This document shows positions 40,893 to 60,382 of a stretch of 64,000 bases of DNA, piece after piece. How positions within the stretch are numbered: position 1 is the first letter of the stretch; each line of letters starts with the position of its first letter. The stretch is from assembly GCA_963677595.1 (NCBI GenBank), contig OY782041.1, positions 2,976,001 to 3,040,000 of the forward strand. Direction: 5' to 3'. Origin of the DNA: Spirochaetia bacterium. GTDB lineage: Bacteria; Spirochaetota; Spirochaetia; CAKZLE01. The notes under the pieces are model-generated. The model searched no databases. It had not been told where the DNA came from and was given only the letters and a program-made list of their open reading frames with translations. The position numbers and the translations under genes are program-made.

Positions 40893-40908
40893 GGTGTACC
40901 TCCTCTCC

Positions 40909-41817: not shown

Positions 41818-41849
41818 GCTTCCAATTCTCCTTTGTCTTTGTAAGAATA

Positions 41850-41885
41850 GAGCCCGGGCTTGGAGGTTCTGCTAAGCCCGGGCTC
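41850..41885 (-). other. Intercistronic hairpin after the binding-protein gene
   Basis: GAGCCCGGGCTT-N12-AAGCCCGGGCTC. Confidence 0.6.
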
Positions 41886-41903
41886 ACATATTGACCTGTT
41901 ATC

Positions 41904-43253
41904 TTATTGTATCAGAGCTATCTGTTCCTGCAACTGCTGATCGATATAATCGACAGCATCCTTTGAGCTTTCCATACCCAGTGCGACACTCTGCAGGGAT
42001 TCCCCAAAGAATGTAGTAGCTTCTATCTGTGAGGACAGCTGGCTGAGGCCGTTCTCCATGCCGTACCAGTACCAGTTGTTATTCTCGAAGGCATTGGTTA
42101 TCGAGTCTATCTGGTCCTGGAAGAGACTGACTTTCGGGTCCTGACGGTAGATCTCGAGACCGGAATAGATTGACGGGAAAGCGAACATCGGTCGCGAGAG
42201 ACCGCGTTCAGCAGCTCGTTCAGCGGTATAGAGTTTGGAAAGGAATTCTTTCTTGAGTGCGATCTTAGCTGCATCCCCGCTGTTGCTTGCCACGAACGCA
42301 TATCCGCTGCCGAAGGAGGCTGGCTTGTTACCGTACTGCCCCGGTAGGTCGAAGCATCCGATGTTCTCAAGCATCTCAGGATTGTTGTTCTGGGCCATCA
42401 GTATGACAGCTCCCATATCGAGCGTCATGGCAACCGTACCTTCAACCAGGGCATTCCGGTATTCGCTCCATGCCCATTCAAGAGATGACTTCGGCGATAC
42501 ATTGTGGTACAGGTCCATGATATAGTCCATGACCTCCACGGCCTTGGCTTTCTGAGAACCGAAGGTGTATGCGCCGGTGTTCGGGTCAACGGTCGTTACT
42601 CCGGCTGAATAGAGGAACTCGTAATAGGTCTGCGGTGCGACCTGAACGGCATTCAGCGGTACTGGGAACCCATATACGTCAATGTTCCCATCCCCGTCCT
42701 CATCGATACAGAGCTTCTCTGCTGCTGCCTTGAACTCAGCCCAGTTCTTCGGGATTTCGATGCCGTACTTGGCAAAGAGATCTTTTCGGTACCATACTGA
42801 TGTATGAAGGGCCCAGTCCGGTAATCCCCAGGTCTCCCCGTCGGCGTTCAGGACATGGAGATAGGATGCGATGAAATCATCCCGGCCAAGGTCGTCGATG
42901 ACATCGTCCACACTGGTGAGCATGTCCTGTGAGTAGAGGTATGCTGATCCGGCAAAGTTAGTGTGCATGATATCGGGGACTTCCCCGGACTCCACAGCAG
43001 TGGCGAGCTTGGTGTACATGTCCCCGAATGAGATGGTGACCATCTCGAAATCGACACCCATCTCCTCTGCCACTTCAGTGAACTGTTTCTTGAGGACGAC
43101 AGTCTGGGCATCAGCGGTCAGGTTCGTCCAGATGACGATCTTGTTGTCATCTTCTGCAGCGACTTGAGTGGCTTCTTCCTTGGTTCCGCCAGCAAATACG
43201 AGGGTACCTGCTGCAAGAAGCAGTACGATGAGTACAAACAACTTCTTTACCAT
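41904..43253 (-). CDS. Sugar ABC transporter substrate-binding protein (CUT1)
   Basis: Signal VFAGGTKE; PDI, WYRKDLF, PKNWAE. Confidence 0.92.
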   Translation of the reverse strand: MVKKLFVLIVLLLAAGTLVFAGGTKEEATQVAAEDDNKIVIWTNLTADAQTVVLKKQFTEVAEEMGVDFEMVTISFGDMYTKLATAVESGEVPDIMHTNFAGSAYLYSQDMLTSVDDVIDDLGRDDFIASYLHVLNADGETWGLPDWALHTSVWYRKDLFAKYGIEIPKNWAEFKAAAEKLCIDEDGDGNIDVYGFPVPLNAVQVAPQTYYEFLYSAGVTTVDPNTGAYTFGSQKAKAVEVMDYIMDLYHNVSPKSSLEWAWSEYRNALVEGTVAMTLDMGAVILMAQNNNPEMLENIGCFDLPGQYGNKPASFGSGYAFVASNSGDAAKIALKKEFLSKLYTAERAAERGLSRPMFAFPSIYSGLEIYRQDPKVSLFQDQIDSITNAFENNNWYWYGMENGLSQLSSQIEATTFFGESLQSVALGMESSKDAVDYIDQQLQEQIALIQ

Positions 43254-43346
43254 AAAATTTCTCCTTTTTAGGTCTTTTCAGACCTGTGAAATCATATCTC
43301 AATCGTTGGTGCATCTGTGAGACAGGTCGCCAACGACGGGATCCAT

Positions 43347-44693
43347 CTAGATGATCGCGTTCTGGGCCTTCAGCGTCTCCTGAAGCTGGGCTATGTCGAT
43401 ATCCCTGGGGGAGACTCCCCGTTTGGATGCGAGCGATGCAGCGATCCCTGCTGCCTCCCCCATAGCCATGCACTGCGGCATGCATCGGATGCAGTTGGCG
43501 ACTGGAGCCTCGTATGAGACACAGCGGCCGGCGACCAGCAATCCGTCCTTGCCTTTCGGGATCATGCATCGATAGGGGATCGTCATCGATTTACCAGGTT
43601 CGAGGTTGTAGACGTACATCGTGATGCCGTCCGGGGTGTGGGCACCGGCAGGCATGGCTCCTCGTCCGATACTGTCCTCGAATTCACGAGCAGCATTGAA
43701 GTCGTCAAGGGTCACCTTGTAGTCGCCGATGATTCGGCGGCTCTCACGTACTCCGAGCAGGCTGGCAATGGCGGCAAGATAGGCGTTCTCGAACCCCGGT
43801 ACGTACTTCCTGAATGCTTCCGACATATCGTATAAGCATTTCTGGGAGAACGCTTCCTGCTCAGTCCTTGACTCAAACCCCTCGGTGCTGTGGGCCTCGA
43901 TCGCCCCGGAGCAGTTGATGATCACTTCACCGGGATTCGGTGTTGAGGTGAAGATGCCCAGCCAATTTCGCAGGTATTCGAGATCCGGGGGGAGTTCCAC
44001 GTCCTCGAGCTCGTCATGCAGCCCGAAATGCATGAAACCAGGGAAGGTCTTGAATTCCCGCCATGCTGGAGGAACATGGTGATCAGCTACCGGCGGATGG
44101 GTCTTGTAGTATTCCTTGACCCTGTCCAGGTCGACGCCTGACATCTTTCCCATCAGGGTCATCGGCTGGATGTCTTTCTTCTCCCGTATCTCGAAGGGCG
44201 CGCCTGCTTTCTCGGCTACAACGGCATCCCCTGAACAATCGATGACGACATCAGCGGTGATCTCCATGAGGGTAGTTCCTGAGAGTACGGTAAGACCTGT
44301 GACTGTATCACCCTCAGTGATAGCATCAACGATGGATGTGTCGAGGTAGACTGAGAGATTTGGCTCCTTAGCTACCAGTTCATCCAAGACGACCTTGGCG
44401 ACTTCCGTGTCATACAGGTAGCAGACATCTGTTTCCTGGTTCTCAATAACCATGGCTCCCCGTGCAGTGAGGATGTCCTTCACCTCCCAGGCGATACCCT
44501 TGACGATGACTTTTTCCTTGTCACTGAACCCTACCCAGGCTCCCTGCATCCCTGCTGTGAATTGCCCGCCAAGGCATCGCTGCTTCTCGACGATGAGTGT
44601 CTTTGCTCCGTTCCTTGCCGCAGCCAATCCTGCGATGATACCGGCAGTGCCTCCGCCGGCTACAAGAACTTCGACCTTTCCCTGTTTCATCAT
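43347..44693 (-). CDS. FAD-dependent oxidoreductase (FAD_oxidored-type)
   Basis: GGGTAG, IDCSGD, GVRESRRI.G, IPYRCMIP, AGRC.S, MGEAAG. Confidence 0.9.
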   Translation of the reverse strand: MMKQGKVEVLVAGGGTAGIIAGLAAARNGAKTLIVEKQRCLGGQFTAGMQGAWVGFSDKEKVIVKGIAWEVKDILTARGAMVIENQETDVCYLYDTEVAKVVLDELVAKEPNLSVYLDTSIVDAITEGDTVTGLTVLSGTTLMEITADVVIDCSGDAVVAEKAGAPFEIREKKDIQPMTLMGKMSGVDLDRVKEYYKTHPPVADHHVPPAWREFKTFPGFMHFGLHDELEDVELPPDLEYLRNWLGIFTSTPNPGEVIINCSGAIEAHSTEGFESRTEQEAFSQKCLYDMSEAFRKYVPGFENAYLAAIASLLGVRESRRIIGDYKVTLDDFNAAREFEDSIGRGAMPAGAHTPDGITMYVYNLEPGKSMTIPYRCMIPKGKDGLLVAGRCVSYEAPVANCIRCMPQCMAMGEAAGIAASLASKRGVSPRDIDIAQLQETLKAQNAII

Positions 44694-44707
44694 ACTACTC
44701 CTTCTTC

Positions 44708-45628
44708 TTAACCAAGATACCCGTATTCTTTCAGTACAGCTTTCAATGTGTCCATCACGTCAGACGGGAGCTCGGAGATGACGGGCTTCCTGCAGTATCC
44801 TGCATCAACGCCACGGAGCTTCAGTCCTTCCTTGATGATCTGGAGCCATGGGGTAGGCATACCGTCAGCAGTCGGTTTGGTGAAGAGCGGCAGGTACGGT
44901 CTGACTTTATCGAAATGTGCCTGCATGGCCTCTTCCATCTTTCGAGCTTTTGCTACATGATACACCTCAGTGTTCTCTTTCGGAAAGAGGTTTCCTGTTC
45001 CGCAGACCCATCCGTCTGCCCAGCATGCAAGGCTCTCTACCGGACATACATCGTAGCCGTAGAAGATCCCGAAATTATCATCGGTCAGATACCTGAGATC
45101 CTGCTGCCGGTAGACATCCGCCTGTCGTTCCTTGACTGCATCGATGAACCCTTCATTGTAGAGCTTGGCCATGAACTCATCGGACATGAGACAGGTCGAG
45201 TAGTAGGGGTTGTGATAGACCATGATGGGGATATCGATCGCCTTCCTGATCGTCTCGTAGTGGAGAAGCAGCTCGTTCTCGTTGGGAGCCATGTACCAGG
45301 GAGTTACGGCCATGATACCGTCAGCGCCAGCACTCTCTGCAGCTTTTGACATCTCGACAACATCTTTGGTGCGGTATGCGCCGGTCGAGCATACGACCTT
45401 GATCCGTCCTGCTGCTGCCTTGACGGTAGCTTCGTTGACAGCCATCTGTTCGGCTGGCGTCATGGCTACCATCTCTCCGGTACTTCCTGAGGGGATGACG
45501 CCGGTGACGCCGTTATCAACAAGGAAGTCGGTACATTCCTTGATGCCGTTGAAGTTGATTGACTCATCCGCATTGAACGGTGTCACCATCGGGATGTAGA
45601 TACCATCCAGTTTTTCTCGTTTTCCCAT
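44708..45628 (-). CDS. DapA/NanA (DHDPS-like) class I aldolase family protein
   Basis: PMVTPF, GSTGE, VYHNP, VKE (Schiff-base Lys). Confidence 0.9.
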   Translation of the reverse strand: MGKREKLDGIYIPMVTPFNADESINFNGIKECTDFLVDNGVTGVIPSGSTGEMVAMTPAEQMAVNEATVKAAAGRIKVVCSTGAYRTKDVVEMSKAAESAGADGIMAVTPWYMAPNENELLLHYETIRKAIDIPIMVYHNPYYSTCLMSDEFMAKLYNEGFIDAVKERQADVYRQQDLRYLTDDNFGIFYGYDVCPVESLACWADGWVCGTGNLFPKENTEVYHVAKARKMEEAMQAHFDKVRPYLPLFTKPTADGMPTPWLQIIKEGLKLRGVDAGYCRKPVISELPSDVMDTLKAVLKEYGYLG

Positions 45629-46048: not shown

Positions 46049-46837
46049 ATGGCTAAGAAAACAGAAGATCAGAGTCCGGATATCATCAAGATGGTGGATC
46101 GTGCGCTGCAGGTCCTCGATATCCTTCGTTTGACGAGGGAGGGGATCGGGGTGAATGCGATCGCTAAACAATGCGAGATTAACCCATCGACCGCATTCCG
46201 TATTCTGAAAACACTCGAGATTAACGGTTGGGTGTTTCAGATGGGCGATGGCCGGTATATCTCCGGCGAGAAATTGAGCTTCGTTCTGGGGAAGGATAAT
46301 CTCTACCTGGCATTGAAGGAAGTCTCTTCCCTTGTGATGGAGAAGTATACCCATGAATATGATAAGGCGATGAACCTCATCGTAAGGGAAGGAGCGCATT
46401 GCTTCATCATGCAGCAGTCCAGGACGAAGAGCCTGGTTGACTATATTGCGCCGCTCTACTCGGAGCTCCCGTTCTATGCCTGTGCCGGTGGAAAAATCCT
46501 TTTATCCGAACTGCCGATCAATCACGCTGATATGATCATACACTCACGGGAGATGACTCCTCTCACGAAACGGACGATCACCGATCCCGACCAGTTCTGG
46601 CAGGAGCTGAGAACTGTCGCGAAACAGGGGTATGCGTTTGACCATAAGGAGAGTTCGGAGAACGGGAGCTGTATCTCCGTTGCTGTCCGTGACAGTAAGG
46701 GTTCAGCCATTGCCGCTGTCTCCTTCAGCGGGTTCATCGGGATCGAAGATATGGATGAGCTCCTGAAGTACCTCCCGGCCTTGAAAGATGCGTCCATGGA
46801 GATATCGAAGAGTCTGTACGCCTGTTGGGAAGGCTGA
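46049..46837 (+). CDS. IclR family transcriptional regulator
   Basis: VDRALQVL, STAFRILKTL, A.GKILL, T..TITD, GYA.D..E. Confidence 0.93.
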   Translation: MAKKTEDQSPDIIKMVDRALQVLDILRLTREGIGVNAIAKQCEINPSTAFRILKTLEINGWVFQMGDGRYISGEKLSFVLGKDNLYLALKEVSSLVMEKYTHEYDKAMNLIVREGAHCFIMQQSRTKSLVDYIAPLYSELPFYACAGGKILLSELPINHADMIIHSREMTPLTKRTITDPDQFWQELRTVAKQGYAFDHKESSENGSCISVAVRDSKGSAIAAVSFSGFIGIEDMDELLKYLPALKDASMEISKSLYACWEG

Positions 46838-46846
46838 AAGGAACAA

Positions 46847-47015
46847 TCAGTACAGGAATCCGAAGAGCCAGAGGGGGATGGTCCTCCCATGCCCGTACTC
46901 TATCGAGTCTGCGGCGATATAGGCATCAGCGATTCCTAAGAAACCGTAGATTCGAGATTCCGGATGAAATCAGGTTTTAGATATGTCTCAAAGACCGTTC
47001 GATCAATCTTTCCAT
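46847..47015 (-). pseudogene. Internally deleted AAA-family ATPase (only the ends remain)
   Basis: ATG 47015 gives MERLIERSLRHI-stop; another frame ends ADAYIAADSIEYGHGRTIPLWLFGFLY-stop, a C-terminus I recognise from AAA_14-type ATPases. Confidence 0.65.
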
Positions 47016-47178
47016 ACTATATTTTACAATACGGCTGATAAGTTGCTAAGTATAGTTAACAAATAATAGGCATTTATGATATCTGTAGTTACCATTTATG
47101 CTGGGGTTGATGGGTTAAGAAGGATCATGAAGGACCTGATCGGTGAAATGTATGGTTCTCCGTTGAGGAGTGCGTGGA

Positions 47179-48441
47179 TCAGGTCGTTAGCACACCCAAT
47201 GGTATGACATTGATGCCGTCTTTACGCTGATAGGCAAATCCATTGGCTGTGATGATACAAAGGGCAGCTGGAGGCCCTATGCGGCTTTGGTCTACTCTTT
47301 GTGCAAAGGTGAGCAGATTGGCTGCTGCCGTTTCCTGGGCCCGCATACCCATCTTCACTTCGAAGGCGGCCCATCTGCCATCGGGGTATTCTATGACTGC
47401 ATCGACTTCCAGGCCACTTGAGTCACGGTAGTGAAAGACATTCCCCCCATGCAGCTCTGCATAGATTCGGAGATCGCGAATGACGAGTGATTCGAAGAGG
47501 AAGCCCAGGTACTGCAGGTCCTTCCCGAGCTTCTCGATTGATAACCCTAATGCCCCGACAGCCAGTGATGGGTCTACAAAGAAACGCTTTGGGCTCTTCC
47601 TCAGCGTGCTGCTTCCCCGGATATGAGTACTCCAGGCAGGCAACTGCTCAAGGATACGCAGTCGTTCAAGGGCCTGGATATAATCTGCGGCTGTCTCATC
47701 GGTCAGGAATCCGTCTGACCCATTCACATCCTTTACCAGTGTTGCCAATGATGCCTCTGTCGCTATATTCCTGGCAAGGGACTGCAGGAGTCTTCGGACC
47801 TTCATTGGATCACGGGTCTTCCCGGAGGCCTTGTTGATGTCTGCTTCAGCCGTCAGGCTGATATAATCCCGGCTGAACTGCAGCCCTGTTACGGCATCAG
47901 CATCGATCAGCCCGGGCCAGCCTCCCAGAACGATCTGTTCGATCAGGGTTTCGAGTCTGAAGGGCAGTTCCCTTGATCGGGGTATATCTCCCTGCATCAC
48001 GGATTCCATGCTCACTTCCCCGGTTGACCATCCCCGCTCAGCAAGTGACATCGGGCGCATATCGACGATGGAAAAGCGCCCTGCACCAGAATGGAGTCGA
48101 GCCGCATTGTGGACCGAAGATGAACCAGTCAGGATGAACTGTCCCTTCTGTTTTCGCTCGTCTACCTCATGCCTCACGAAGTTCCAGATCTCGGGGTATT
48201 CCTGCCACTCATCGATCACTCTTGGAGTATCACCGGCCAGGACCATCCTGGGATCCAGTTCCATCTGCAGTCTCACGATATCATCGGTATCCATCCTGGC
48301 GATACTCCCTGCAGCCTGAAGGGCCGTCTCAGTCTTTCCGCAGCCTTTTGCTCCTCGTATGAGGACGGCTCCTGAGACTGTCAGCCTGTTCTGTAGTATG
48401 GTATCAGTGACTCTCGGCATATACATGGTTATCTTCTCCAA
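47179..48441 (-). CDS. AAA_14 ATPase with DUF4143 (wHTH + PD-(D/E)XK-like) domain
   Basis: GAKGCGKT, IDEWQ, FILTGS, HSGAGR, K.FFVDPSL, GFLFE, EVDAVIE, FEVK. Confidence 0.92.
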   Translation of the reverse strand: MEKITMYMPRVTDTILQNRLTVSGAVLIRGAKGCGKTETALQAAGSIARMDTDDIVRLQMELDPRMVLAGDTPRVIDEWQEYPEIWNFVRHEVDERKQKGQFILTGSSSVHNAARLHSGAGRFSIVDMRPMSLAERGWSTGEVSMESVMQGDIPRSRELPFRLETLIEQIVLGGWPGLIDADAVTGLQFSRDYISLTAEADINKASGKTRDPMKVRRLLQSLARNIATEASLATLVKDVNGSDGFLTDETAADYIQALERLRILEQLPAWSTHIRGSSTLRKSPKRFFVDPSLAVGALGLSIEKLGKDLQYLGFLFESLVIRDLRIYAELHGGNVFHYRDSSGLEVDAVIEYPDGRWAAFEVKMGMRAQETAAANLLTFAQRVDQSRIGPPAALCIITANGFAYQRKDGINVIPLGVLTT

Positions 48442-48460
48442 TAGCTATCATACCATGTAT

Positions 48461-48535
48461 TCGGTGAAATGGGAAGTTTTCATTCGGTGAAATAGAAGAT
48501 TTATAATCGGTGAAATAGAAGATTTACAATCGGTG
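48461..48535. repeat. 23-bp tandem direct repeats, 3 copies plus a partial
   Basis: TCGGTGAAATGGGAAGTTTTCAT / TCGGTGAAATAGAAGATTTATAA / TCGGTGAAATAGAAGATTTACAA / TCGGTG starting at 48461, 48484, 48507, 48530. Confidence 0.9.
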
Positions 48536-48644
48536 TAAGGTTTTTTTCAAGGTTCATTGGATGGGTATGGGTCCACCGGAAAGTTTGGTATAATGATGTG
48601 TAGAACATGTGAACGAATATGTTAGTTGGGGATCAAGTGAGATT

Positions 48645-48995
48645 ATGATGGAAATTGAGAAGATCAGTGGTAACATCCTCTATTATCTGCAGCAGAAGGG
48701 GATGGCTCAGGTTGACCTGGCTAACGGGTTACATACCTCAACGCACGTCGTGAATAAGATGGTACACGGAAAGAAAGCCTTGAAGATACAGGAATTGGAC
48801 TCCATAGCTGCATGTCTTGGTATCTCACTGGATGAGCTCATAAACCGTGAGCATCACCATACCGAGGAGCGTTTGGAGGTAGCACAGCTGTCTGAAGCCA
48901 TTGGGAATCCTGAGACAGCTGCGTTCATCATGACATTGGTCAGTAACCTGTCCGAGATGGAAACGGAATTGGCTGCACATGGATTACGCATATAA
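48645..48995 (+). CDS. XRE/HTH_3 transcriptional regulator
   Basis: QVDLANGLHTSTHVVNKMVHGKK...IAACLGISLDEL; TGGTATAAT upstream. Confidence 0.8.
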   Translation: MMEIEKISGNILYYLQQKGMAQVDLANGLHTSTHVVNKMVHGKKALKIQELDSIAACLGISLDELINREHHHTEERLEVAQLSEAIGNPETAAFIMTLVSNLSEMETELAAHGLRI

Positions 48996-49071
48996 GGACC
49001 TGGGTGAGGATATCTTGACCTGGATACGGAAAGAGATCCCTTGATCAAGCGCAGTTGTGCTCAGATGCCTG

Positions 49072-49386
49072 TTATACGGGTTGCTGGTTCTTTGTTACCT
49101 CAATCAAGAGTTCACAATCCAGGGCACAGGAGAACAGCGCAAGGGTCTGTATGGTGAAGTTTCGTTTCTCATTGAGGATCTTTGAGACATACTGCCTGGA
49201 CCTTTCGATCCTCTTAGCGAGCTCGTTCTGGTTGACCCCGGACTCTTCCATGACCTGAAGGATCCTCTGGACCACATACCCGTTGTAGTAATCAGCGACG
49301 ATCTCGGCTGTCTTTCCCGGATCGATCAGTTCCCGGTCCGCAATGATCTCAAGCAATGTATCAGTTACAGCAGTATTGTAGTCCAT
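49072..49386 (-). CDS. XRE/HTH_3 protein (HigA-like), paralog of 39596-39946
   Basis: NQNELAKRIERSRQYVSKILNEKRNFTIQTL; GAGGAGG RBS. Confidence 0.82.
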   Translation of the reverse strand: MDYNTAVTDTLLEIIADRELIDPGKTAEIVADYYNGYVVQRILQVMEESGVNQNELAKRIERSRQYVSKILNEKRNFTIQTLALFSCALDCELLIEVTKNQQPV

Positions 49387-49453
49387 AGCCGCTGCCTCCT
49401 CATCTTCTTTGGGTTCCCGTGTGTAACAAGATGGTAGCTTGGGGAGGTGTGAA

Positions 49454-49473
49454 TGTCAACCTATAGGTTGACA
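49454..49473. promoter_or_regulatory. Perfect 20-bp palindrome overlapping the -35 of the XRE gene
   Basis: TGTCAACCTATAGGTTGACA; minus strand TTGACA-17-TACCAT. Confidence 0.75.
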
Positions 49474-49599
49474 GATTGGTTTGTTCATCAGAACAGCTTC
49501 CTGTACGAACGTATGGGGTTTGTTCAGGTTGTTATATGTTTTGCATGTCTGTTTTATTTTCCCGTAACATGGTAGTATGATTGTCATTGATAAGGAAAG

Positions 49600-50847
49600 A
49601 TGATTATGAGATTCAGAATAAAGAACTTTGGTCCAATCCAGGATGGATTCCCGCAAGATGAGTTTATGGATATTTCTGGAGTCACCCTGTTCATCGGGAG
49701 TCAGGGTGCGGGTAAGAGTACTGTAGCAAAAGCTTTATCAACGATGATATGGATCGAGAAGGCTCTCGTTCGAAAAGATTTCACCAGCAAGGAACTACAG
49801 CTGCCGGGCAGGTTCAAGGCTCACTTCGCATTTCATAAGATCAAGTCCTATTTCAATGCTGATTCTGAGATAGAGTATATAGGGTCGGTCTATAGAATTG
49901 CATACCTTGGTGAGGGAAACCTCGCCATCGAAAGACTTCATACACCCGAAGGGGATACTATACATATCCCTAAGATCATGTATGTCCCTTCTGAGAGGAA
50001 TTTCCTGAGTGTAGTACCTAAGCCCAGTATGGTGAATGACCTTCCCCCTTCTTTCGCAGTCTTCTTGGATGAATATGAGAAAGCAAAACGGGAGCTGACT
50101 GGTGAGATCGGACTTCCTGTAGCTGCTTCAGCCTTTTCCTATGATAAGCTCAATGACACCTCATGGGTCATACGAAAGGGGAATAAGACACGGCTTTCTG
50201 AGGCTTCCAGCGGGTATCAGTCGATTGTTCCTCTGTACCTGGTGAGCAGTTATCTGGCAAAGCAATTATCCCAAAAGAGGGATCAAGGCTATAAAGAAGA
50301 GTTGTTGGGTGATTATCAGCTTTCGAATGAGAACCTGGTTAAGCTTCGAAAAGAGATAAACCAACTGATCTCAAATACGAATATAGATAACAATGTTCTC
50401 ATCGCTATGCTGAACAATGCAGTCTCCACGTATCGACCCTCATATTTCATAAACATCGTCGAAGAACCGGAACAGAACTTATTTCCTGATTCACAACTCA
50501 GGATTTTCTTCGAACTGCTGTCTCATGTAAACTTGAACGATAAGAATATGTTGATTGTCACGACGCATAGCCCGTATCTGATCAATGCACTTTCTCTGGC
50601 TGTTGCTTGCCGAAATATTGATATTAACAAGCTTTCTGAGGATGAGAAAGTTGAATTGGGGACAATAGTTCCTTATGCATCATGGATCGATCCTGAAGCG
50701 TTCCTGATCTATAAGCTTGATAATGACGGGAATATATCCCTGTTGGAGAATTATGCAGGCTTGCCGTCTGATGAGAACTACCTGAATGAATTCCTGGGTG
50801 ATTTTAACGATTCATTCAGCCGCATCTTAGAACTTGGAGACAGGTAA
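49600..50847 (+). CDS. ABC-type ATPase (AAA_15/AAA_21-like, defence-associated type)
   Basis: IKNFGPI, GSQGAGKST, YVPSER, ASSG.QS, IVEEPEQNLFP, TTHSPY. Confidence 0.88.
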   Translation: MIMRFRIKNFGPIQDGFPQDEFMDISGVTLFIGSQGAGKSTVAKALSTMIWIEKALVRKDFTSKELQLPGRFKAHFAFHKIKSYFNADSEIEYIGSVYRIAYLGEGNLAIERLHTPEGDTIHIPKIMYVPSERNFLSVVPKPSMVNDLPPSFAVFLDEYEKAKRELTGEIGLPVAASAFSYDKLNDTSWVIRKGNKTRLSEASSGYQSIVPLYLVSSYLAKQLSQKRDQGYKEELLGDYQLSNENLVKLRKEINQLISNTNIDNNVLIAMLNNAVSTYRPSYFINIVEEPEQNLFPDSQLRIFFELLSHVNLNDKNMLIVTTHSPYLINALSLAVACRNIDINKLSEDEKVELGTIVPYASWIDPEAFLIYKLDNDGNISLLENYAGLPSDENYLNEFLGDFNDSFSRILELGDR

Positions 50848-51359
50848 TGGCAGGAATCAACTTCTTGGATTTTGCGTCTGATGACAATATTATTCATGAA
50901 AAAGAATTCGGCATCTGTGATGATGCTGATGAATCTCCATCGTATTACTCCACAAACCAGATCCGTGATCACTGGGTCGCGACTGTCTCGAATCCTGGGA
51001 CCAAGGCTATCCAGTTCTTGCCAGTTGATAAGCATATCCCCCTTAGACGCCTTGATGGAACAGATGCTAAACGCTGTGATGCGATGTTGTTATCTTTCCC
51101 CCACCATACGAAAGAATCAGTTGTGTTCATCGAGTTGAAAGAAGAGAGGACTTCGAATAACAAACGGGCTATCGAGCAGCTTGATGAGACGATAGCTATG
51201 TTCAAGGCATACCATCTGCTTGATGCATACAAGAAGCGTGTTGCATATGTCGTGAATAGGAGGCATCCGAAGGTTCATAATTCTACCCGTAAGGAGATCA
51301 TAGATTTCAGGACTAACCATAGAATCAGGCTTATATTCTCAGCGAATGTGATCTTCTGA
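50847..51359 (+). CDS. Hypothetical protein, probable PD-(D/E)XK nuclease partner
   Basis: TAATG coupling; RCDAML...VFIELKE...A..QL..T. Confidence 0.7.
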   Translation: MAGINFLDFASDDNIIHEKEFGICDDADESPSYYSTNQIRDHWVATVSNPGTKAIQFLPVDKHIPLRRLDGTDAKRCDAMLLSFPHHTKESVVFIELKEERTSNNKRAIEQLDETIAMFKAYHLLDAYKKRVAYVVNRRHPKVHNSTRKEIIDFRTNHRIRLIFSANVIF

Positions 51360-51399
51360 TAGTATCCCTATACAGAGGTCATTCAAACCGAGTCGTTGT

Positions 51400-52376
51400 T
51401 CAACCAAGTCCCTCCCACTCAGCGATGCGTTCCAGCATCTGCTGAGAAGAGATGTCCAGGATCTCAGCGGCCCGGGAGATCGATATCTTCTCACCTTCCA
51501 CGGCCTGACGGACCAGGCGGATCAACCTGTCAGCCGAGAAATCGAAGGGTCTCAATCCGAAGGGTTCAGAGCCTTTCGGGCAGGGTTCCTCTTTGTAGGA
51601 CAGTTTCTTGTGGTATCGGGTTTCATAGAGCTGTCCGAAGTGATACCAGATCGTGTCATTGACTATCTCTTTCTGTTTCAGGCGATACAGGACAGTCTTA
51701 TAGCTGACTTTGAAGATGCCCTTTATCTTCATGACCCGGTTGACAAATGGCATGCCGGCACTGCTTTCCCATTCGGAATCAAACCCCTGGCCGGGCATGA
51801 GGAAGTATCCGGCGAACAGGTCAGCTTCCTGTTCCTGTGAGGTGTCCTCTGCGGTCTGGCTGCCGTCGTAATCTACAGAGTGCATCAAAAGATGGCCGAG
51901 CTCATGGGCAGCACTGAAGATCTGCCGTTCAGTAGTGATCCGCTCCCAGCTGTTGATGATGATAGCCGGACCTTTGTCTCCCTCACCGACTGACAGCCCG
52001 TTGAAGGCATCAGAAGCATAGGGAAGGGCAAGGACTTTGATTCCGCAGCTTTCCAGCAGGCCGCAGATGTCATGGATGGGTTCATTGAGTTTCAGGCCAA
52101 GCATCTTTCGTGCTTCTCCTGCTACCTGCAGAGGGGTAAGCTGTTTGGAGTCTGCTGCAAGACAGTGCAGCTTGAATTCCTCGGTCTCTTCCATCAGGCT
52201 TTCAAGAGACGAAAAATCAGACAGCCACCTGAAGACCTGAGCCAGTATCTGGTCTCGCCTGGTCAACCTGCTTCGTGCCCGGAATCGCACATGAGCAAGT
52301 TCCCCAACAGGTCTCACCAGATCCTGCAGCCTGCAGTCCAGGGCTTTGCTGATTGCCAGCAGGGTATTGGTCCTAG
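51400..52376 (-). pseudogene. XRE-HTH/ImmA-IrrE metallopeptidase, 5'-truncated by IS1182
   Basis: AHELGH (HExxH) and EQEADLFAG..L; native sequence starts mid-HTH (PRTNTLLAISKAL) at the IS CTAG. Confidence 0.8.
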
Positions 52377-52530
52377 GAGTCTGTCGGAGTTGATGACCTA
52401 ACATTCTGGTCATTCTCTCCGGCAGGACCCGATTTATTAGAGTTTGTCGTAATTGACAAACATTACCTACATAATCGCCTCATATTGGCTTGATTACAGC
52501 AGGAAAGAGGGTATCCCCCTCCTGTTCCTA

Positions 52531-53892
52531 TCATCTCAACGCATGTAATCGCTTCAGATTATACGCTATGCAGACAAGATCCCATTCTCCTTGGACTGAC
52601 TCAAACCCTCGAAGAAGAAACTGGCGATATCCCATAACTGCCTTGATGATCCCAAATACCGTTTCAACGGTACTTTTCCGTTTCGCATATACTGCTCGAC
52701 CGGCATCAGTCTGTAACCGATACTTCATCTGTTCCACCGCATCAGCATCCTCAGGCGGTTTCTCAAGAGGTTCTCCGCTAAGGCGCTTTTTCAGCCACTG
52801 ATTATGCTTCTCCCGATGCGTACTGATATACGGAACTATGGCCTCCTGCTCACAGAGCTCTACATTCGTTGTACTGAAATACCCGGTATCTGCAAGCAGG
52901 CCTTCCACGGCTCCCATATCTTCAGGAAGTTTCTTCAGTTCTTCCACTGCAGGGGCTACTTCCTGTTTATCATTCGTGTTCTGACTTACGTGCTCTCCTA
53001 CGATCAGCATCGTTTCTACATCAACACTCGCCTGTCCGTTATATCCCTGTTCAAATCCTCCGCTTGAACAGGGCATGATGCGGGACTCCGCATCGGTAAG
53101 GTTAACCTGGTCCTGATCGCGTGGCCCCGGTGTAGGCGGTTTTGGACCCTTTCCCCCTGGCTTTTTCCCGCTTGCTTCTTCCTTCGATTTACGCTTTGCC
53201 AACTTGTTCTCGTATTCAGCGACTTCCTGCTTATACCGTTCTTCGGCCCGTCGCTCTATTTCTGCTTTTGCTACAGCTATCGCTGTCATTCGAGCTTCTC
53301 GCCTTTCCAACTCCGCCGGGATGTCAATCCCATCTGGCATCTCACGTCCCTCGGCTTCCTCGGCCATTCGCATTAATGCTTCAACTTCTGCCTGCAACTG
53401 TCGTTCTAATTCACTCGCATATTTATAACTCAACGCCCGGTGTTTTGATGCATTCGCTTTGATCTTAGTCCCATCAAGGCTCACCTTACCAAGTTTCAAA
53501 CATCCCATCTCTTGGGCTATCTGCAGTACCTGCACAAAGACACTCTGCAACTCATTGATGAACCGTTTGCGAAACGTCGCTATCGTATCATGATCCGGGT
53601 GCGTGTCTCCTGCAATATACCGAAACGCCACTGAATCATAGGTCGCCTGCTCCAATTTCCGGCTCGAGAAGACCCCGGTTGCATACCCATAGATAAGCAA
53701 TCCCAACAGCACCTCGGGTGAATGCGCTTTCTCTCCCCGTCCGGCATACACGTTCTCTATCGCTCGCAGATCAAGTGATCCCACTATCTCCACGACAAAT
53801 CGGGCCAGATGCCCTTCAGGCAGCCAATCATTGATTGAGGGGGGCAGAAAGTACGGAGTCTCTCGATCTATGAATTTGAATTTCTGGGTCAT
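52531..53892 (-). CDS. IS1182-family transposase
   Basis: LPEGHLARF, SSRKLE, PDHDTIATFR, DGTKIKANAS, TDAESRIM, ADTGY, Y..RKSTVE.VFG.IK, AYNLKR. Confidence 0.95.
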   Translation of the reverse strand: MTQKFKFIDRETPYFLPPSINDWLPEGHLARFVVEIVGSLDLRAIENVYAGRGEKAHSPEVLLGLLIYGYATGVFSSRKLEQATYDSVAFRYIAGDTHPDHDTIATFRKRFINELQSVFVQVLQIAQEMGCLKLGKVSLDGTKIKANASKHRALSYKYASELERQLQAEVEALMRMAEEAEGREMPDGIDIPAELERREARMTAIAVAKAEIERRAEERYKQEVAEYENKLAKRKSKEEASGKKPGGKGPKPPTPGPRDQDQVNLTDAESRIMPCSSGGFEQGYNGQASVDVETMLIVGEHVSQNTNDKQEVAPAVEELKKLPEDMGAVEGLLADTGYFSTTNVELCEQEAIVPYISTHREKHNQWLKKRLSGEPLEKPPEDADAVEQMKYRLQTDAGRAVYAKRKSTVETVFGIIKAVMGYRQFLLRGFESVQGEWDLVCIAYNLKRLHALR

Positions 53893-53919
53893 CCACTACA
53901 CCTTGTTGCGTTATTTTTT

Positions 53920-55552
53920 GGGTCTGAAATTTTTAACGTGTAAAAAGTAGAAAAAGAGAGCGGAAACTCCTATGATTTGTAATCGCAAAACAACAGATCA
54001 AGGAGAACCGCTCTCATGCAGGAAGATAACACGTATTTGCTGGAGGAGTCCACTGGGTGGATGGTTGACTGGAGCCATCCAAGGTACGAAATTTGCCTCG
54101 ATGAAAGAAATGGAATATCCTACGGAAAGATTACCTATTCTGTAACGAAGGATCCTGACAAAGACTGGAAGAGTGAATTACCAGAAGGCCAATGGTACAA
54201 GCACAGCAATGAGGTTACGGTGCTGAAGCACTGCAGCTCAGGAATCACTCTGATATGCTTCGAAGTCTATTACGAGAGTTATGTGAACAAGTATGGACGG
54301 AGACGCCGAACGGACGTCCTTCCCTTTCGAAGCGGAAAGACCGGTTATACACTTCATTTTCGTGATAATATCTCCTATTTCATGACAGGCTACGGAATGA
54401 CAATCAGCCGATGTGCGCTCATCTGCCACACCACGCCAGCCATCGTCAAAGAGGTGAATAAGACTCGCTTATTCAGCCTTGCAGGTAATATGAAACCCAG
54501 CCCATACCTTTGTGTAGACGAATTTCTCATCGAGCATGGGCATCGCTACTGTACCATAGTCATAGATGCCCAAAGTGGAGAACTCCTGTATCTTGAGAAA
54601 GGTAAGAAGAAGCAACAGCTGGAACATTTCTTCACATGGGTGGGAGAGGACTTCATGAACCATGTGAAGGCGATCTCGATGGATATGAGCACCAACTACA
54701 GCGCCGCGGTTAAGGAGTCATTCCCCCACATCAAGATAGTCTACGACACCTTTCATATCGTACAATGGTTCAATAAACAGGTCATTGATGCAGCCAGAAG
54801 AACGGAAGGGAACAGGCTGAAAAAGCTGGCTGAGAAACTGCAGCACGAGAGCAGATTGGAAGAGGCTACACTGGTGCTTGAAGAGAGAAAACTACTCTTC
54901 GGTTCACGTTTTCTACTTCTCGCTAACACACGGACACTCAAAGCGAAGGATAAGCTGAATGCAGAACTTAACGCTGAGGCGAAGAGAACCGCAAAGGAAG
55001 AGGGTCGGGATGCAGACCGAGTTGGGCACCGTAGAACGAATAATTCAGATTCACGCGACGCCATTCTTAAGGCGAATGCGAATCTTCAGAATGCCGTGAA
55101 GGCTCGTGAGGAACTGATTGAGATACTCTCCATCCCGAATCCTGAGCATATGAGGGAAAAGCTTACCACATGGGTGAAACTTTATTCATCCGTCGGCATC
55201 AGCCAGTTGACTAGATTCCCAGGACGATTACCAACAGGATGGAGGGTATCGTTTCAAGAGCTCTCGCTCCAATCAGTTCAGGGAAGATTGAAGGTGTGAA
55301 CGGCTTCATCAAGGCTATGCGTAGAAGTGCATTCGGATACCAGGATTTCGATTACTTTGCACTGCTCATCTGGGAACAGACTCACCGAAAGAAGAGGCAG
55401 AATCGCTTAAACCAGAAAAGGAAAACAAGAAGCTATTCAAGGGCAAGGCCTTATAACAGAAAACGCCTAAAACAGACAGTGTTCCAGCTGCCAAAGCCTC
55501 CTCTCAAGGATGTCGTATAGATGATGGATTACACGTTAAAAATTTCAGACCC
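53920..55552 (+). mobile_element. ISL3-family element nested in IS1182
   Basis: Perfect 24-bp terminal IRs GGGTCTGAAATTTTTAACGTGTAA; 8-bp target duplication TATTTTTT at 53912-53919 and 55553-55560. Confidence 0.93.
54016..55520 (+). pseudogene. ISL3 transposase with a frameshift near 55219
   Basis: VDEF...GH.Y.T, SMDM, YD.FH in ORF1; SSGKIEGVN..IK...R.AFG in the overlapping frame 55239-55520. Confidence 0.85.
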
Positions 55553-55606
55553 TATTTTTTCACCCTTCCATCCTATCATATTTTTCGTTTTAAGTCCGAC
55601 AGCCTC

Positions 55607-55894
55607 CTAGACCATGCCGTGGTAAAGACCGATACAGGCTTGACCATCTTCCTGCTGAACCGGAGCGATACCCAGACCATAGAAGCATCACTAGCATACC
55701 CGGCCGGACTAACCGAAAGCGATGCCGTAATCCTCATCTCGGATGATCCGCTCAAGCGCAACAGCTTCACCGAACCGGAAGCGGTAACACCAAAGCAGTT
55801 CTCAGGCTACACCATAGATAATCAGGCACAGGGAAGTACCGTTACTGTGACTATACCCCCCATGTCGTTGGTACGGGTAGGGGTGAGGTGGTAA
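55607..55894 (+). pseudogene. 3' fragment of a GH51 alpha-L-arabinofuranosidase-like gene
   Basis: LDHAVVKTDTGLTIFLLNRS...NSFTEPEAVTP...IPPMSL, beginning exactly at the IS CTAG. Confidence 0.7.
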
Positions 55895-56341
55895 CCGATC
55901 ACCAGATGGGCTTGTGACGTCTGCTCCGTGTGACTTCAACCAGTGAGAAAAAGTCTATATGCAGGAAGATGTCACCAGCAATAATCTTTACCTCATTGAA
56001 CATCGTAACAGTCTACTTGGGAGTCCCATGGCGGTTAGGGGGCTCCTGAATCTCTTTGCCCATTCATGCACACAGTACATAGTTCCTTCCCGGGTATCTC
56101 GATCTATTCATGAAATCTCCAAGATCCCAATAACCAAAAATACATAACCATCATCCGACTCCAATACCCCTACACATAGAAGAGGTTGGGGAAGGTGGTA
56201 GTGGGCCTTTATGCTTTGGGGAGTTGCTGCCTGTGGGGCATGGATTGTTTCCTGTGTGGTTCCAGTGTTTATGTTGACACATGGAAGTTGTTGTTGTATA
56301 TTTAAAACAGGTAAAAATACTACGTAAAACAGGAATAAAAT

Positions 56342-57637
56342 ATGATTCAGGAATTTTATGTTGAGAATTACCAGTCAATAAAGGGACGTCAGGGCATCAG
56401 TTTTGTTCCTAACAGGAAGATGAGTACCGGGAGTGAAGAGTATCTGCTGATCCGGGTCTCTGAGCATGTACAGCTGCTCAAGCTAGGTATCCTCTATGGG
56501 TATAATGCATCTGGGAAGTCCAACCTCCTGGAAGCTATGGATTTCCTCAGGACACTGGTTGTGGACGGGGCCGAAGCCAAGGATGAGAAGACTGGCTTCG
56601 AGCCGTTTCTCTTGTCTCCTGAAACGCTGGAAGTCCCTGGCTCGTTTCAGCTGGTGTTCTACATAGATGCAGTGAAATATGAGTACTCAGTCTCCCTGAA
56701 TGGGCAGAGGATCCTCTCTGAGAGCCTGTACTTTACTCCTGACGTGAGAAAGGCAAGACTGTATACGCGAGTGTATGACGAAGACCTGAGAGTCTCAAGA
56801 TTGAGTTTCGGTACCAGCTGCGGGTTCAAGTCCAGGGATAGGCTGCTGCTTGAGGGGAATACCTTGGAGAACTGTACCGTCCTGTCTGCGTACAGGAAGA
56901 CGAATGTCAATTCACTGGAGCTCGACAAGGTATTCAGCTATTTCAGGGACCACATCTCCCCGATCATAACCCCCAGGGTCCTGCTGCGGGAATGGAGCGT
57001 TGACCGACTGATACAGGATGACCGACATAAGGATTTTCTGCTGAGACTGCTGGTAAAGGCAGATTTCCAGATCTCCGGCCTTGATATCATCGAGGATTCC
57101 TTTGATGTTACTGCTGAACTCCTTGATGACCTGAAAGGCAAGGGGGCCCCTGCCGTATTGCTTGAGGACTTGAAGCAGAAAAAGACAGTTGAGAACCGCG
57201 AACTTGTTTTCTCCCATACCACAACCCAAGGTGAATACAATCTTCCGTTTGAGAAGGAATCACAGGGAACCCTCAGGTATTTTGGACTTGGCGGGATACT
57301 CAATGAGATGATCACATCCAGGAAGTTCATCTTCATCGATGAGATAGAGACCTCTTTGCATCCTGACCTCGTATCTTTCTTCATGCAGCAGTTCCTCATG
57401 AATACGACAGGATCACAGCTGTTCGTGACCACGCATAACCAGTTTCTCATGGAGCAGGATTATATCCGCAACGATATGCTGTGGCTTTGTGAGAAGGATG
57501 AAGAAGGTCAGTCAACGTATTACAGCGTCCAGGATTTCAGGTTGCATAAGAATGTCTCGGTGATGAATCATTACCGGGCCGGGAAGCTGGGAGCATCGCC
57601 CCAGCTTGGTAGCCCTGTCCTCGGGGAGGGATACTGA
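56342..57637 (+). CDS. RloA-like AAA_21 ATPase
   Basis: VENYQSIK, GYNASGKSN, ESQGT, IDEIETSLHP, TTH, RND.LW..EK, Y..GKLGA.P. Confidence 0.9.
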   Translation: MIQEFYVENYQSIKGRQGISFVPNRKMSTGSEEYLLIRVSEHVQLLKLGILYGYNASGKSNLLEAMDFLRTLVVDGAEAKDEKTGFEPFLLSPETLEVPGSFQLVFYIDAVKYEYSVSLNGQRILSESLYFTPDVRKARLYTRVYDEDLRVSRLSFGTSCGFKSRDRLLLEGNTLENCTVLSAYRKTNVNSLELDKVFSYFRDHISPIITPRVLLREWSVDRLIQDDRHKDFLLRLLVKADFQISGLDIIEDSFDVTAELLDDLKGKGAPAVLLEDLKQKKTVENRELVFSHTTTQGEYNLPFEKESQGTLRYFGLGGILNEMITSRKFIFIDEIETSLHPDLVSFFMQQFLMNTTGSQLFVTTHNQFLMEQDYIRNDMLWLCEKDEEGQSTYYSVQDFRLHKNVSVMNHYRAGKLGASPQLGSPVLGEGY

Positions 57638-57641
57638 CGCT

Positions 57642-57713
57642 TTGAGACGACCAGTACAGCATGAGCGATTCTCCATAGCTATAGTGGGAGAGGGCCTGAC
57701 AGGATGGGGATAG
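57642..57713 (+). pseudogene. 23-codon stub of an RloB-like gene
   Basis: TTG 4 nt after the ATPase stop; LRRPVQHERFSIAIVGEGLT matches the RloB/TOPRIM N-terminal EG motif, then stop. Confidence 0.6.
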
Positions 57714-57816
57714 TATGCTCTCCCTCCTTGATTTTTCCCATGCAGCTGGTAGTATGGAATCAGGTGATGGATTGGTCAGGCTAATCTAATTACCGAACAA
57801 ACATACAAAGGAACCT

Positions 57817-58386
57817 ATGGTAACGTTCAGATTCAATGAGAGACGAGCGACTCAAGCTGCAGCATACTTCTTAGAGAGGAATCATCATATCCTCAACTGT
57901 ACCAAACTGATAAAACTGTTATACCTTGCAGATCGGATGGCTATATTACGATGGCATGAGCCGATCACTGGTGATACCTATCTCTCATTGCCCTATGGTC
58001 CGGTTCTGAGCACGATACTGGACAATATCAGCAATGGACACCGAGACGGCTTCCGTGATTACTGGTCAGCCCATATAAGCAAAGCTGGATGTGATTCATA
58101 TTCGGTAGCACTCACTGAAGCTGTTGAATTCGATGAGTTGAGCAAGCGGGAGATTGAACTCCTGGACTATCTCGATACGAGGTTCAAGGAGTATGATCAG
58201 TGGGAGATGATCGATTATTGCCATACGTATTGCGAAGAATGGGAAGCCCCTGATGGTTCTAATCACGTAATCACCATTGAAGATATACTCAAGGCAGAAA
58301 TAGCAGATCCTGAAGAGATACAGAACATCTTGGATGAGATGCAGGTAAAAAGCTCTATCATGCACCTCAACTGTGTTGGGTTGTGA
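57817..58386 (+). CDS. Panacea/DUF4065 (SocA-like) antitoxin
   Basis: KLIKLLYLADR, ITGD.Y...PYGPV, LS..E, Y.H....EW. Confidence 0.87.
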   Translation: MVTFRFNERRATQAAAYFLERNHHILNCTKLIKLLYLADRMAILRWHEPITGDTYLSLPYGPVLSTILDNISNGHRDGFRDYWSAHISKAGCDSYSVALTEAVEFDELSKREIELLDYLDTRFKEYDQWEMIDYCHTYCEEWEAPDGSNHVITIEDILKAEIADPEEIQNILDEMQVKSSIMHLNCVGL

Positions 58387-58452
58387 GTATAGAGATTACG
58401 ATACGGTGTTCGTCACAGTGAAAAGAACCTGGTAGTATTACCTTCGGAGATA

Positions 58453-59499
58453 ATGATGATACGTTACAAGACCGGAGATCTTCTCGCTGAGGAAACAGAA
58501 GCCCTTGTCAACACCGTCAACTGTGTCGGTGTCATGGGCCGTGGAATAGCCTTGCAGTTCAAGAAGCAGTTCCCGGGGAACTGTACCATGTATGAGAAGG
58601 CCTGCAGCCGTAATGAGGTAGTGCCGGGGAAGATGTTCGTGTATGAGACCGGGAGACTTCTCAATCCCAAATATATCATCAACTTCCCAACGAAACGCCA
58701 TTGGCGAGAGGCGAGTCGGTTGGAAGACATCGATTCCGGACTGGAAGACTTTGTTCGAATGATCAAGGAGTATGGGATAACATCTATCGCCTTGCCTCCC
58801 CTGGGCTGCGGCCTTGGCGGTCTTGATTGGGGGATCGTCCGTGATCGAATTGAAACAGCCCTGATGGAACTCTCCGAAGTGGAAGTCGTGGTGTTCGAAC
58901 CGAACGGTGCCCCGGATCCTGGAAGGATGGTAAGGCATAGGAAGGTCCCTGCCATGACACCAGGCCGGGCTGCCCTTGTGGAACTGTGTTATCGGTACCT
59001 GTCCGGTCTGCTTGATCCCTTCATTTCGCTTCTTGAGATCCATAAGCTCATGTATTTCCTGCAGGAAAGCGGCGAGGAGCTTAAGCTGAAATTCCAGAAA
59101 GCTCCCTATGGGCCATATGCAGAGAATCTCAGGCACGTCCTTCATGCAGTAGAAGGTTATATGCTTTCCGGCTATATCGATGGCGGCGATGACCCGCACA
59201 CACAGATCAACCTGGTCCCCGGGGCGTATGAAGAAGCATCTGCATTCCTGAGAACGCAGGAAGAGACGATGAGGCACTATGAACGGGTATCAAAGCTTGT
59301 CGCCGGTTTTGAGTCGCCATTAGGCATGGAACTGCTGGCTACCGTCCATTGGGTAGCAGCAAGAGAAGGTGCTCATACCATGGACCATGTCGTAGAGAAG
59401 ACCTATGCCTGGAATGACCATAAAAGAGAGTTCAACTCGAGGCAGATCGCCATAGCGGGAAAAGTCCTGAAGGAGCAGGGCTGGATAGAGCTGTACTGA
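58453..59499 (+). CDS. darG: DarG-like macrodomain antitoxin (DNA ADP-ribosyl glycohydrolase)
   Basis: VNTVNCVGVMGRGIALQFK, IINFPTK.HW, PPLGCG.GGL.W; C-terminal KL.YFLQ, YGPY, GFES..G.ELL.TV.W. Confidence 0.9.
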   Translation: MMIRYKTGDLLAEETEALVNTVNCVGVMGRGIALQFKKQFPGNCTMYEKACSRNEVVPGKMFVYETGRLLNPKYIINFPTKRHWREASRLEDIDSGLEDFVRMIKEYGITSIALPPLGCGLGGLDWGIVRDRIETALMELSEVEVVVFEPNGAPDPGRMVRHRKVPAMTPGRAALVELCYRYLSGLLDPFISLLEIHKLMYFLQESGEELKLKFQKAPYGPYAENLRHVLHAVEGYMLSGYIDGGDDPHTQINLVPGAYEEASAFLRTQEETMRHYERVSKLVAGFESPLGMELLATVHWVAAREGAHTMDHVVEKTYAWNDHKREFNSRQIAIAGKVLKEQGWIELY

Positions 59500-59714: not shown

Positions 59715-60377
59715 CTAACCCGGATCTCGAGGAACATGACATCCCTCTAAGATACTCTTTATGATTTTCCAGATTGATAGCGAAGGATTGACAGTGAAGA
59801 AGTCATAGCCATAGAGATGCTGTAAAGGATACCTGTTCGTCTTGTTCCGCTCGGTGATGTCATCTGCCCTATCTATTGCGGACCATACATTAGCTAGTGT
59901 CAGTTTCCCCAGTATTCTTTTGAAGTTCGCTTCTTGCTTATATTCATCCATGTTCGAAAAATGCTCCTGAAAGGCTCTGTTGATTGGACCAAGATATTGA
60001 TGCCGATGACTCAGGGCACCATTACAGTCTGCTTTATGGAGGATGATCCATAGATCGAAGGAGAAATTACTATACCCCAGTTTGTATGTTATCTTCTTTC
60101 CCAGTTTCTGCGCCTGTTTCATCCGTTGTAATGCTGTGTTGAATTGCTGCACATGCTCCGGCTCCTCGCTTTCCCGGTCAATGATATGGGAGATCTCGGT
60201 CTTGCCTAAGATACTCATACCTTTGACCCGAGACAGTGGGTCCTTTTCTACTTTGCAGTCGAATGACGATTTGAATCTGGCCCCTGCTGCAGCATTGATG
60301 CTGCGGCTCAGCCACTGGAGATACCATTTCTCCGTCTCTCCTTCTACGGAGAAGAAGAATTTCTTTGCTTGTTTCAT
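59715..60377 (-). CDS. rloB: RloB family protein
   Basis: FSVEGETEKWY, IIDRE, YSN.SFDLWIILH, NPS. Confidence 0.85.
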   Translation of the reverse strand: MKQAKKFFFSVEGETEKWYLQWLSRSINAAAGARFKSSFDCKVEKDPLSRVKGMSILGKTEISHIIDRESEEPEHVQQFNTALQRMKQAQKLGKKITYKLGYSNFSFDLWIILHKADCNGALSHRHQYLGPINRAFQEHFSNMDEYKQEANFKRILGKLTLANVWSAIDRADDITERNKTNRYPLQHLYGYDFFTVNPSLSIWKIIKSILEGCHVPRDPG

Positions 60378-60382
60378 GCTGT

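Follow-up and report, generated by a model that had tools for sequence, protein, structure and literature searches.

Systems of an ABC ATPase and a small nuclease

The nearest tested relative of the gene pair described here is WonAB, an OLD-type ABC ATPase and a small PD-(D/E)xK nuclease from the WASA-1 prophage of Vibrio cholerae, which its authors (Adams et al. 2025, PMC12137116) assign to an operon type from Krishnan et al. 2020, "OLD-ABC ATPase + Novel REase". By their account, WonAB needs both of its genes and, within them, Walker A, Walker B, the H-loop and the nuclease lysine; WonB is toxic solely together with active WonA, and simple sequestration is excluded; genomic DNA stays intact and translation stops, rRNA or tRNA being suggested as the substrate; and in the published model WonB binds a surface formed by the WonA dimer (PMC12137116). 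The same source reports the "OLD-ABC ATPase + Novel REase" family, which is broad and holds several nuclease sub-types, in 0.96% of genomes, says of the family in its Supplementary Table 5 that it "encompasses all detected homologues of WonAB", and calls PD-T4-4 similar to WonAB (PMC12137116). Among the papers listed in a literature search, those on WonAB or WonB are that original work and a review.

Other systems are built along these lines. HEC-02, which joins an ABC ATPase to a NERD PD-(D/E)xK nuclease, is reported to have been tested, with both genes required; Septu (PtuAB), PARIS (AriAB) and AbiL (RloAB) likewise consist of an ABC ATPase and a nuclease. A different kind of catalogue is that of Payne et al. 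(bioRxiv 10.1101/2024.01.29.577857), whose PDCs, as the preprint presents them, are 145 untested candidates taken from genes that lie inside BREX, DISARM and type I restriction-modification (RM) systems. PDC-M29 is one of these, and copies of it are often embedded in restriction operons, this being the criterion by which PDCs were picked. A full-text search of the literature returned no mention of "PDC-M29", and no experimental work on a member of it came to light; the supplementary tables of the preprint lay outside that search and may describe M29.

The gene pair and its family

The pair lies on the + strand of the window (the whole stretch of 64,000 nucleotides that was analyzed). Gene A (49600..50847) encodes an ABC ATPase of the OLD/PtuA/Rad50-like kind and gene B (50847..51359) a predicted PD-(D/E)xK nuclease of 170 aa. 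Both frames are open and of full length, and they overlap by one base in a stop/start sequence, TAATG (50845..50849, + strand), that points to translational coupling; in relatives, too, the A/B junction is abutting or overlapping. An earlier note on this DNA had described just such an intact and coupled pair, and the open reading frames with their one-base overlap bear it out; every motif that it named in the two proteins is found where it was claimed to be. Its length of 415 aa for gene A is right for the open reading frame, but the true start is probably at 49606, two codons later, which would give 413 aa: a Shine-Dalgarno-like word, AAGGA, stands only 3 nt before ATG 49600 and 9 nt before ATG 49606, and the database gene call (P0173) is of 413 aa.

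Gene A has GSQGAGKS at residue 33, EASSG at 201, IVEEPEQNL at 286 and TTHSPY at 321, and with them a catalytic set made up of Walker A K39, the signature SSG at 203-205, Walker B E288/E289 and H-loop H323; toward its C-terminus there is a conserved LPSDENYLN helix region. When gene A is aligned with 111 of the 119 non-self matches listed, Walker A, SSG, VEEPEQNL and THSPY are invariant in 112/112 ATPases, K39, E289 and H323 among them, and the C-terminal P-D-N-LN motif is largely invariant too. Pfam places the protein in AAA_15/AAA_21; NCBIfam gives no family name to either gene. It is PADLOC-DB v2 that provides one: gene A matches PDC-M29A with an E of 1.3e-135 (residues 4-413 on positions 3-407 of a 410-position profile), its next-best family standing at 1.5e-17, and gene B matches two PDC-M29B models with E of 1.6e-40 and 1.1e-25 (residues 4-169), its next-best family standing at 3.5e-4. 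The two full-length profile matches stand in the order A then B, adjacent and on one strand, as expected of PDC-M29. On these sequence matches the pair is almost certainly PDC-M29, a branch of the "OLD-ABC ATPase + Novel REase" family. This copy shows no architectural difference from PDC-M29; it differs from many copies in not being embedded in another system, and its well-supported, Sphaerochaeta-centered clade has not been seen beside RM genes.

The earlier note had been unable to match the pair to a named system and had put it forward as an unnamed one. The PADLOC check that it proposed overturns this: the pair is an ordinary intact copy of a candidate that is already catalogued, with full-length matches to PDC-M29A and PDC-M29B; its wider family is published, a relative being listed in Supplementary Table 5 of PMC12137116; and its design is common to two tested systems, WonAB and HEC-02. 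The listed relative is FPG3_RS11065 of Flavobacterium psychrophilum, entered together with FPG3_RS11060 (PMC12137116). By eye, it is the same as the protein P0245 over the 400 residues shown in that table (PMC12137116), and P0245 shares 46% identity with gene A across 99% of the latter; the partner listed with it has the pattern FGLCD...RCDG...FVELK...QL. Gene A fits this wider family by its invariant motifs (112 sequences) and by its fold: the structure model (pLDDT 87.7) finds Septu PtuA as its best Foldseek match (E 2.2e-9, TM 0.42), with Rad50 and OLD next, and a profile of gene A run against the sequences of solved structures gives 10 motif-level matches, to PtuA and OLD.

How near does this bring the pair to WonAB itself? 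The two-gene design is common to both, and the motif order D..CD..FIELK..A..Q..T can be made out by eye in the rows of Table 4 (PMC12137116). K71 of WonB (located by eye from the K71A primer) sits in F-I-E-L-K, like K98 of gene B, and the K/E/H catalytic set of the WonAB ATPase is matched by K39, E289 and H323 of gene A. The differences are that gene B is the longer protein (170 aa as compared with 16.1 kDa for WonB), that its conserved N-terminal FGxCD..PAY..W segment is not seen in the WonB rows of Table 4 that are shown, and that the pair has no conserved upstream regulator. FPG3_RS11065 and TRESU_RS08820 (Treponema succinifaciens), the two loci of PDC-M29 type that were looked up, are absent from the WonAB hits of Table 4 and present in Table 5 only (PMC12137116); the pair is thus a member of the wider "Novel REase" family but probably not of the WonAB subfamily.

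HEC-02 and PD-T4-4 have the same two-part design, but membership of either was rejected: gene A matches HEC-02A (E 6e-9, residues 1-55) and PD-T4-4_A (E 1.5e-7, residues 286-332) by motif only, and gene B has no match to their nucleases at E <= 0.1. Septu, PARIS and AbiL were also rejected. PtuA is the best solved structural match, but the sequence matches of gene A to the ATPases of these systems are confined to the Walker motifs, and gene B matches neither HNH (PtuB) nor TOPRIM (AriB) nor RloB (AbiLii) in Pfam, PADLOC or NCBIfam at E <= 0.1.

Gene B as a predicted nuclease

In the PD-(D/E)xK layout, the D and the (D/E)xK are carried by successive beta strands, and a helix comes next. Gene B has RCDAM at residue 76, FIELK at 94 and AIEQL at 108; its putative catalytic residues are D78, E96 and K98, and D61, C77, Q111 and the N-terminal FGxCD motif are also conserved. 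Among 150 aligned sequences, drawn from a family that has 784 representatives at 50% identity with E <= 0.001, E96 and Q111 are kept in all 150, K98, D61 and C77 in 149, and D78 in 147. The structure model (pLDDT 86.2, made from a 20-sequence alignment) places D78 and E96-x-K98 on consecutive strands (79-83 and 91-98) before a long helix (105-123), so the PD-(D/E)xK pattern is present in alignment and model alike.

Searches lean the same way, weakly. Pfam returns sub-threshold restriction-fold matches alone (HSDR_N_2 at 0.0031, PDDEXK_9 at 0.067), and a profile of gene B run against the sequences of solved structures returns one match, at E 0.8, which is nothing meaningful. In the structure search the neighbors are weak: NucS has a Z of 6.5 (rmsd 3.0, 99 aligned), the FokI cleavage domain 6.4 and Can2 5.7, none is as high as 8, and small GTPases appear in the same search with 5.2; mostly, however, these neighbors are nucleases of PD-(D/E)xK type, BspD6I and XPF included. 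The fold check that the earlier note had proposed for the partner gave the PD-(D/E)xK layout in the model and no Foldseek match at E <= 0.001. Its description of the partner as restriction-fold-like and neither HNH nor TOPRIM agrees with the near-invariant motifs of the 150 sequences and with the bent of the weak structural matches. We take gene B for a restriction-fold-like predicted nuclease. No fused or longer form of gene B was found among 7742 candidates, which counts as weak evidence.

Linkage and distribution

The two genes keep together. Gene B is directly downstream in 17/17 loci selected by gene A (16 strong, one with E 8e-6), and gene A is directly upstream in 19 of the 21 loci selected by gene B, two of the 19 being contig-edge fragments; the remaining two are L013, which starts at a contig edge, and L022, which is without gene A. 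The pair is found here and there: B matches occur in 7 of 301 genomes of its own phylum (5 of them strong, its own genome included), and in the phylum of G301 (the Porphyromonas bin from which locus L012 comes) 17 of 401 genomes gave 18 A matches, 17 of which are the A-selected loci tallied above; neither of two same-genus genomes (97% and 86% complete) has a DNA match to the pair; and gene A is matched in 3 of 72,556 plasmid records, in two of them over most of its length. The PDC-M29 pair is obligately linked and patchily distributed. Among the sampled loci of Bacteroidota and spirochaetes this branch is common, and the copy in the window, being intact, could be cloned.

The nearest relatives, 58-59% identical in gene A, are from records labelled Sphaerochaeta, Spirochaetales, Firmicutes and methanogen; those that were included in the tree group with this copy in a clade of full support. 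Four loci (L003, L004, L005 and L007), labelled Methanomethylovorans, Firmicutes, Spirochaetales and Clostridiales, have near-identical copies of the pair and flanking genes in common, and this block is preceded by genes that we take to be serine recombinases. Their similarity suggests a wide-ranging mobile element or mis-binning. A more distant pair (L028, on G023:C14) consists of a 426-aa ATPase and a 136-aa protein with CD...FIELK...Q and without the FGxCD segment; by eye, this partner looks closer to the short WonB type.

Restriction operons and other surroundings of the relatives

Enrichment of the homologues in defense neighborhoods, which the earlier note had proposed to look for, is found. 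Of 18 A-selected loci, 7 have an hsdR gene no more than 7 kb from gene A, as compared with 0.22 expected (a figure derived from how many hsdR genes each genome has, and kin among these loci are not independent); in 6 of these 7 the pair stands between hsdM and hsdR, and the seventh reaches the end of its contig. The association with RM is scattered over a quickly built tree of 39 ATPases (without L003 and L004, duplicates or fragments): its 9 RM-linked rows are explained by 7 changes, 6 or more of them forced by strong branches, and cluster no more than shuffled rows do (74 of 500 shuffles gave a count as low). The seeds of the PDC-M29 models were themselves embedded in RM, BREX and DISARM (bioRxiv 10.1101/2024.01.29.577857), and top hits can therefore be biased toward such contexts.

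A scan of neighbors within two ORFs (136 of 140 near neighbors from 39 loci, with no random control) found a named defense gene in 13 of the 39 loci: type I RM in 10, and IetAS, AbiLi and HEC-01. Dsr2 and DarTG adjoin the pair within RM loci. Among the other loci one has PD-Lambda-2-like genes and three have other candidates only, and 22 are without a credible defense gene within two ORFs, 17 with no match and 5 with cross-hits. (A technical note: the cross-hits, in L011, L017, L022, L032 and L042, are PADLOC matches to helicases, ABC transporters and a PrimPol-like protein, which were discounted by judgment as housekeeping.) A copy on a Persicobacter plasmid abuts type III mod/res genes and one on a viral contig is near Menshen genes; many copies stand alone, inserted among housekeeping genes. 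The genome to which the window belongs has no match to type I hsdM or hsdR at the thresholds used.

A proposed mechanism and its rivals

That the pair has an anti-phage role we consider likely. The whole mechanism that we propose for it, an abortive infection resembling that of WonAB, is one to which we incline with less assurance, by analogy with that system: a dimer of the ATPase would detect phage infection and, so activated, would switch on the predicted nuclease; the ATPase would bind the nuclease via its C-terminal extension and would, as in WonAB, be needed for the toxicity of the nuclease instead of being its antidote; the nuclease would then arrest the infected cell via translation, probably by cleaving host RNA; and the outcome, again as in WonAB, would be a non-lytic translation arrest in which the chromosome is not degraded. 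The RNA-level part of this scheme is carried across a subfamily boundary, because the two PDC-M29-type loci that were looked up are absent from the WonAB table. A predicted 1:1 complex of A and B (score 0.01, mark 0.32) is counted neither for nor against their binding, because the published WonAB model seats B on the surface of the A dimer, which a 1:1 input cannot form.

What if the nuclease cuts DNA? The pair would still be directed against phages or plasmids, but its target would be the DNA of the invader or the host chromosome, and within RM operons it might be a back-up; we think this unlikely, and of the alternatives it is the one that survives best. PD-(D/E)xK enzymes are mostly DNases, and Septu and Gabija cut DNA; NucS, FokI, BspD6I and XPF are the best structural neighbors of gene B, Septu PtuA is the nearest solved fold to gene A, and the pair is enriched beside hsdR. 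On the other hand, Can2/Cdn1-type effectors are structural neighbors of gene B as well, its structural scores are too low for a substrate to be assigned, and the nearest tested relative, WonAB, spared genomic DNA and stopped translation (PMC12137116).

The abortive mechanism on the pattern of WonAB, with RNA as the probable target, can be extended into a speculation that we regard as improbable: PDC-M29 might be a guard resembling PrrC but made of different parts, which repeatedly enters type I and type III restriction operons because anti-restriction proteins of phages are what its ATPase senses before it turns a restriction-fold RNase against translation, and gp13 of the lytic cyanophage Mic1 of Microcystis might be an ATPase captured without the nuclease, a decoy that disarms the host copy. 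The phage protein (Mic1_13; MN013189.1, L052:3995-5233) is the best of the matches to gene A in 3 of 50,697 phage records; it is 42% identical over 97%, and is a full-length match to PDC-M29A (E 1.8e-187). It has VEEIEQ where 112/112 aligned ATPases have VEEPEQ, and its gene is placed in a late expression cluster (PMC11237433). No gene B was found beside it, nor, as a soft result (the first pass yielded no candidate), in the whole 92.6-kb record. Mic1 gp13 may serve as a decoy, or it may be no more than a captured gene or sensor. The embedding in restriction operons and this ATPase-only copy offer two handles on how such systems are activated and blocked.

It is improbable that the pair is a selfish addiction cassette of the toxin-antitoxin kind, to which restriction operons and islands are mere insertion hotspots. 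The block common to L003-L005 and L007 across Spirochaetales, Firmicutes and a methanogen bin would suit such a cassette, as would the many solo insertions between housekeeping genes, and Pfam labels AAA_21 a type IV TA family; but an antidote is hard to reconcile with a WonB that is toxic solely with active WonA, sequestration being excluded (PMC12137116), and matches in 3 of 72,556 plasmid records are few for a plasmid addiction module.

The neighborhood in the window

The GC content of the pair is 0.432, as compared with 0.546 for the genome, and is equalled or undercut in 4.6% of 2457 equal-size genome tiles. The earlier note had the pair visibly more AT-rich than the catabolic genes: this is so for the genes at 40050-45628 (0.528), but a low-GC stretch of about 60 kb (0.41-0.50 per 5 kb) surrounds the pair, which is therefore just modestly more AT-rich than its neighborhood. 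The HTH, ImmA and IS genes that it had listed as neighbors are confirmed by Pfam, two transposase genes near the pair among them. A repeat search of 46800-57000 found no repeats bounding the pair.

Upstream, an HTH gene (48609-48995, Pfam) is followed by a divergent HTH_3 gene (49072-49386, - strand, 104 aa, Pfam), a candidate local regulator that was rejected as a part of the system: tblastn found no homologue of it at the other loci compared. Between this gene and gene A, about 130 bp upstream of the latter, is a perfect 20-bp palindrome (49454-49473), which overlaps the -35 box of a predicted leftward promoter for the divergent gene. Perfect 20-bp palindromes number 45 in the genome; this one has its sole copy here and is absent from the other loci compared. 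It is a possible operator, local and outside the conserved system.

Downstream, an IrrE/ImmA-type HTH-peptidase gene (51400-52413, - strand; Pfam, and RmrA-like in PADLOC) was also rejected as a part of the system: it matched 3 of 40 relatives on its own, and gene A matched 1 other. It is without the first ~32 residues of its 369-aa relative in L056, where a small gene overlaps the 3' end of that relative; the end of a transposase gene lies 118 bp upstream of the gene in the window. An ISL3-type element follows (53920-55552), whose perfect terminal inverted repeats of 24 bp are alone in 46800-57000 as a clear terminal repeat; its transposase ORF ends at 55299 and is followed by a second short ORF (55239-55520), which suggests a frameshift.

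The defense-like genes that are named after tested systems begin about 5 kb from the pair, those from the AbiLi-like gene to the AbiL pair lying 5-10 kb downstream. The block at 56342-59499 (+ strand) apparently holds three orphan sensor or antitoxin genes in a row: an AbiLi/RloA-like ATPase gene (56342) with no RloB gene behind it, a Panacea-domain gene (57817, profile match) and a full-length DarG gene (58453) with no adjacent DarT. An intact-looking AbiL (RloA/RloB) pair is next (59715-61708, - strand; Pfam/PADLOC/NCBIfam), and then a further ATPase with a 153-aa partner (62238-64000, - strand); the partner has weak MADS4/HEC-01B matches and is possibly truncated, because a similar gene in L007 is of 242 aa.

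That the copy in the window is silent or dead cargo in a decaying island is very improbable: its neighbors do look damaged or orphaned (the N-terminus of the IrrE-type protein, DarG without DarT, the AbiLi-like gene without RloB), the copies in L008, L021 and L033 are broken, and no + strand sigma-70-like promoter was found upstream of gene A in a scan that was, however, crude (3 sites, as compared with 4.8 expected by chance), but both frames are open and of full length and every catalytic position is kept.

The gene at 47179-48441, on the far side of the HTH genes, is an AAA_14/DUF4143 gene (PDC-S01-like). Just upstream of it, at 48458-48538, there are three imperfect tandem copies, spaced at 23 nt, with the core TCGGTGAAA.
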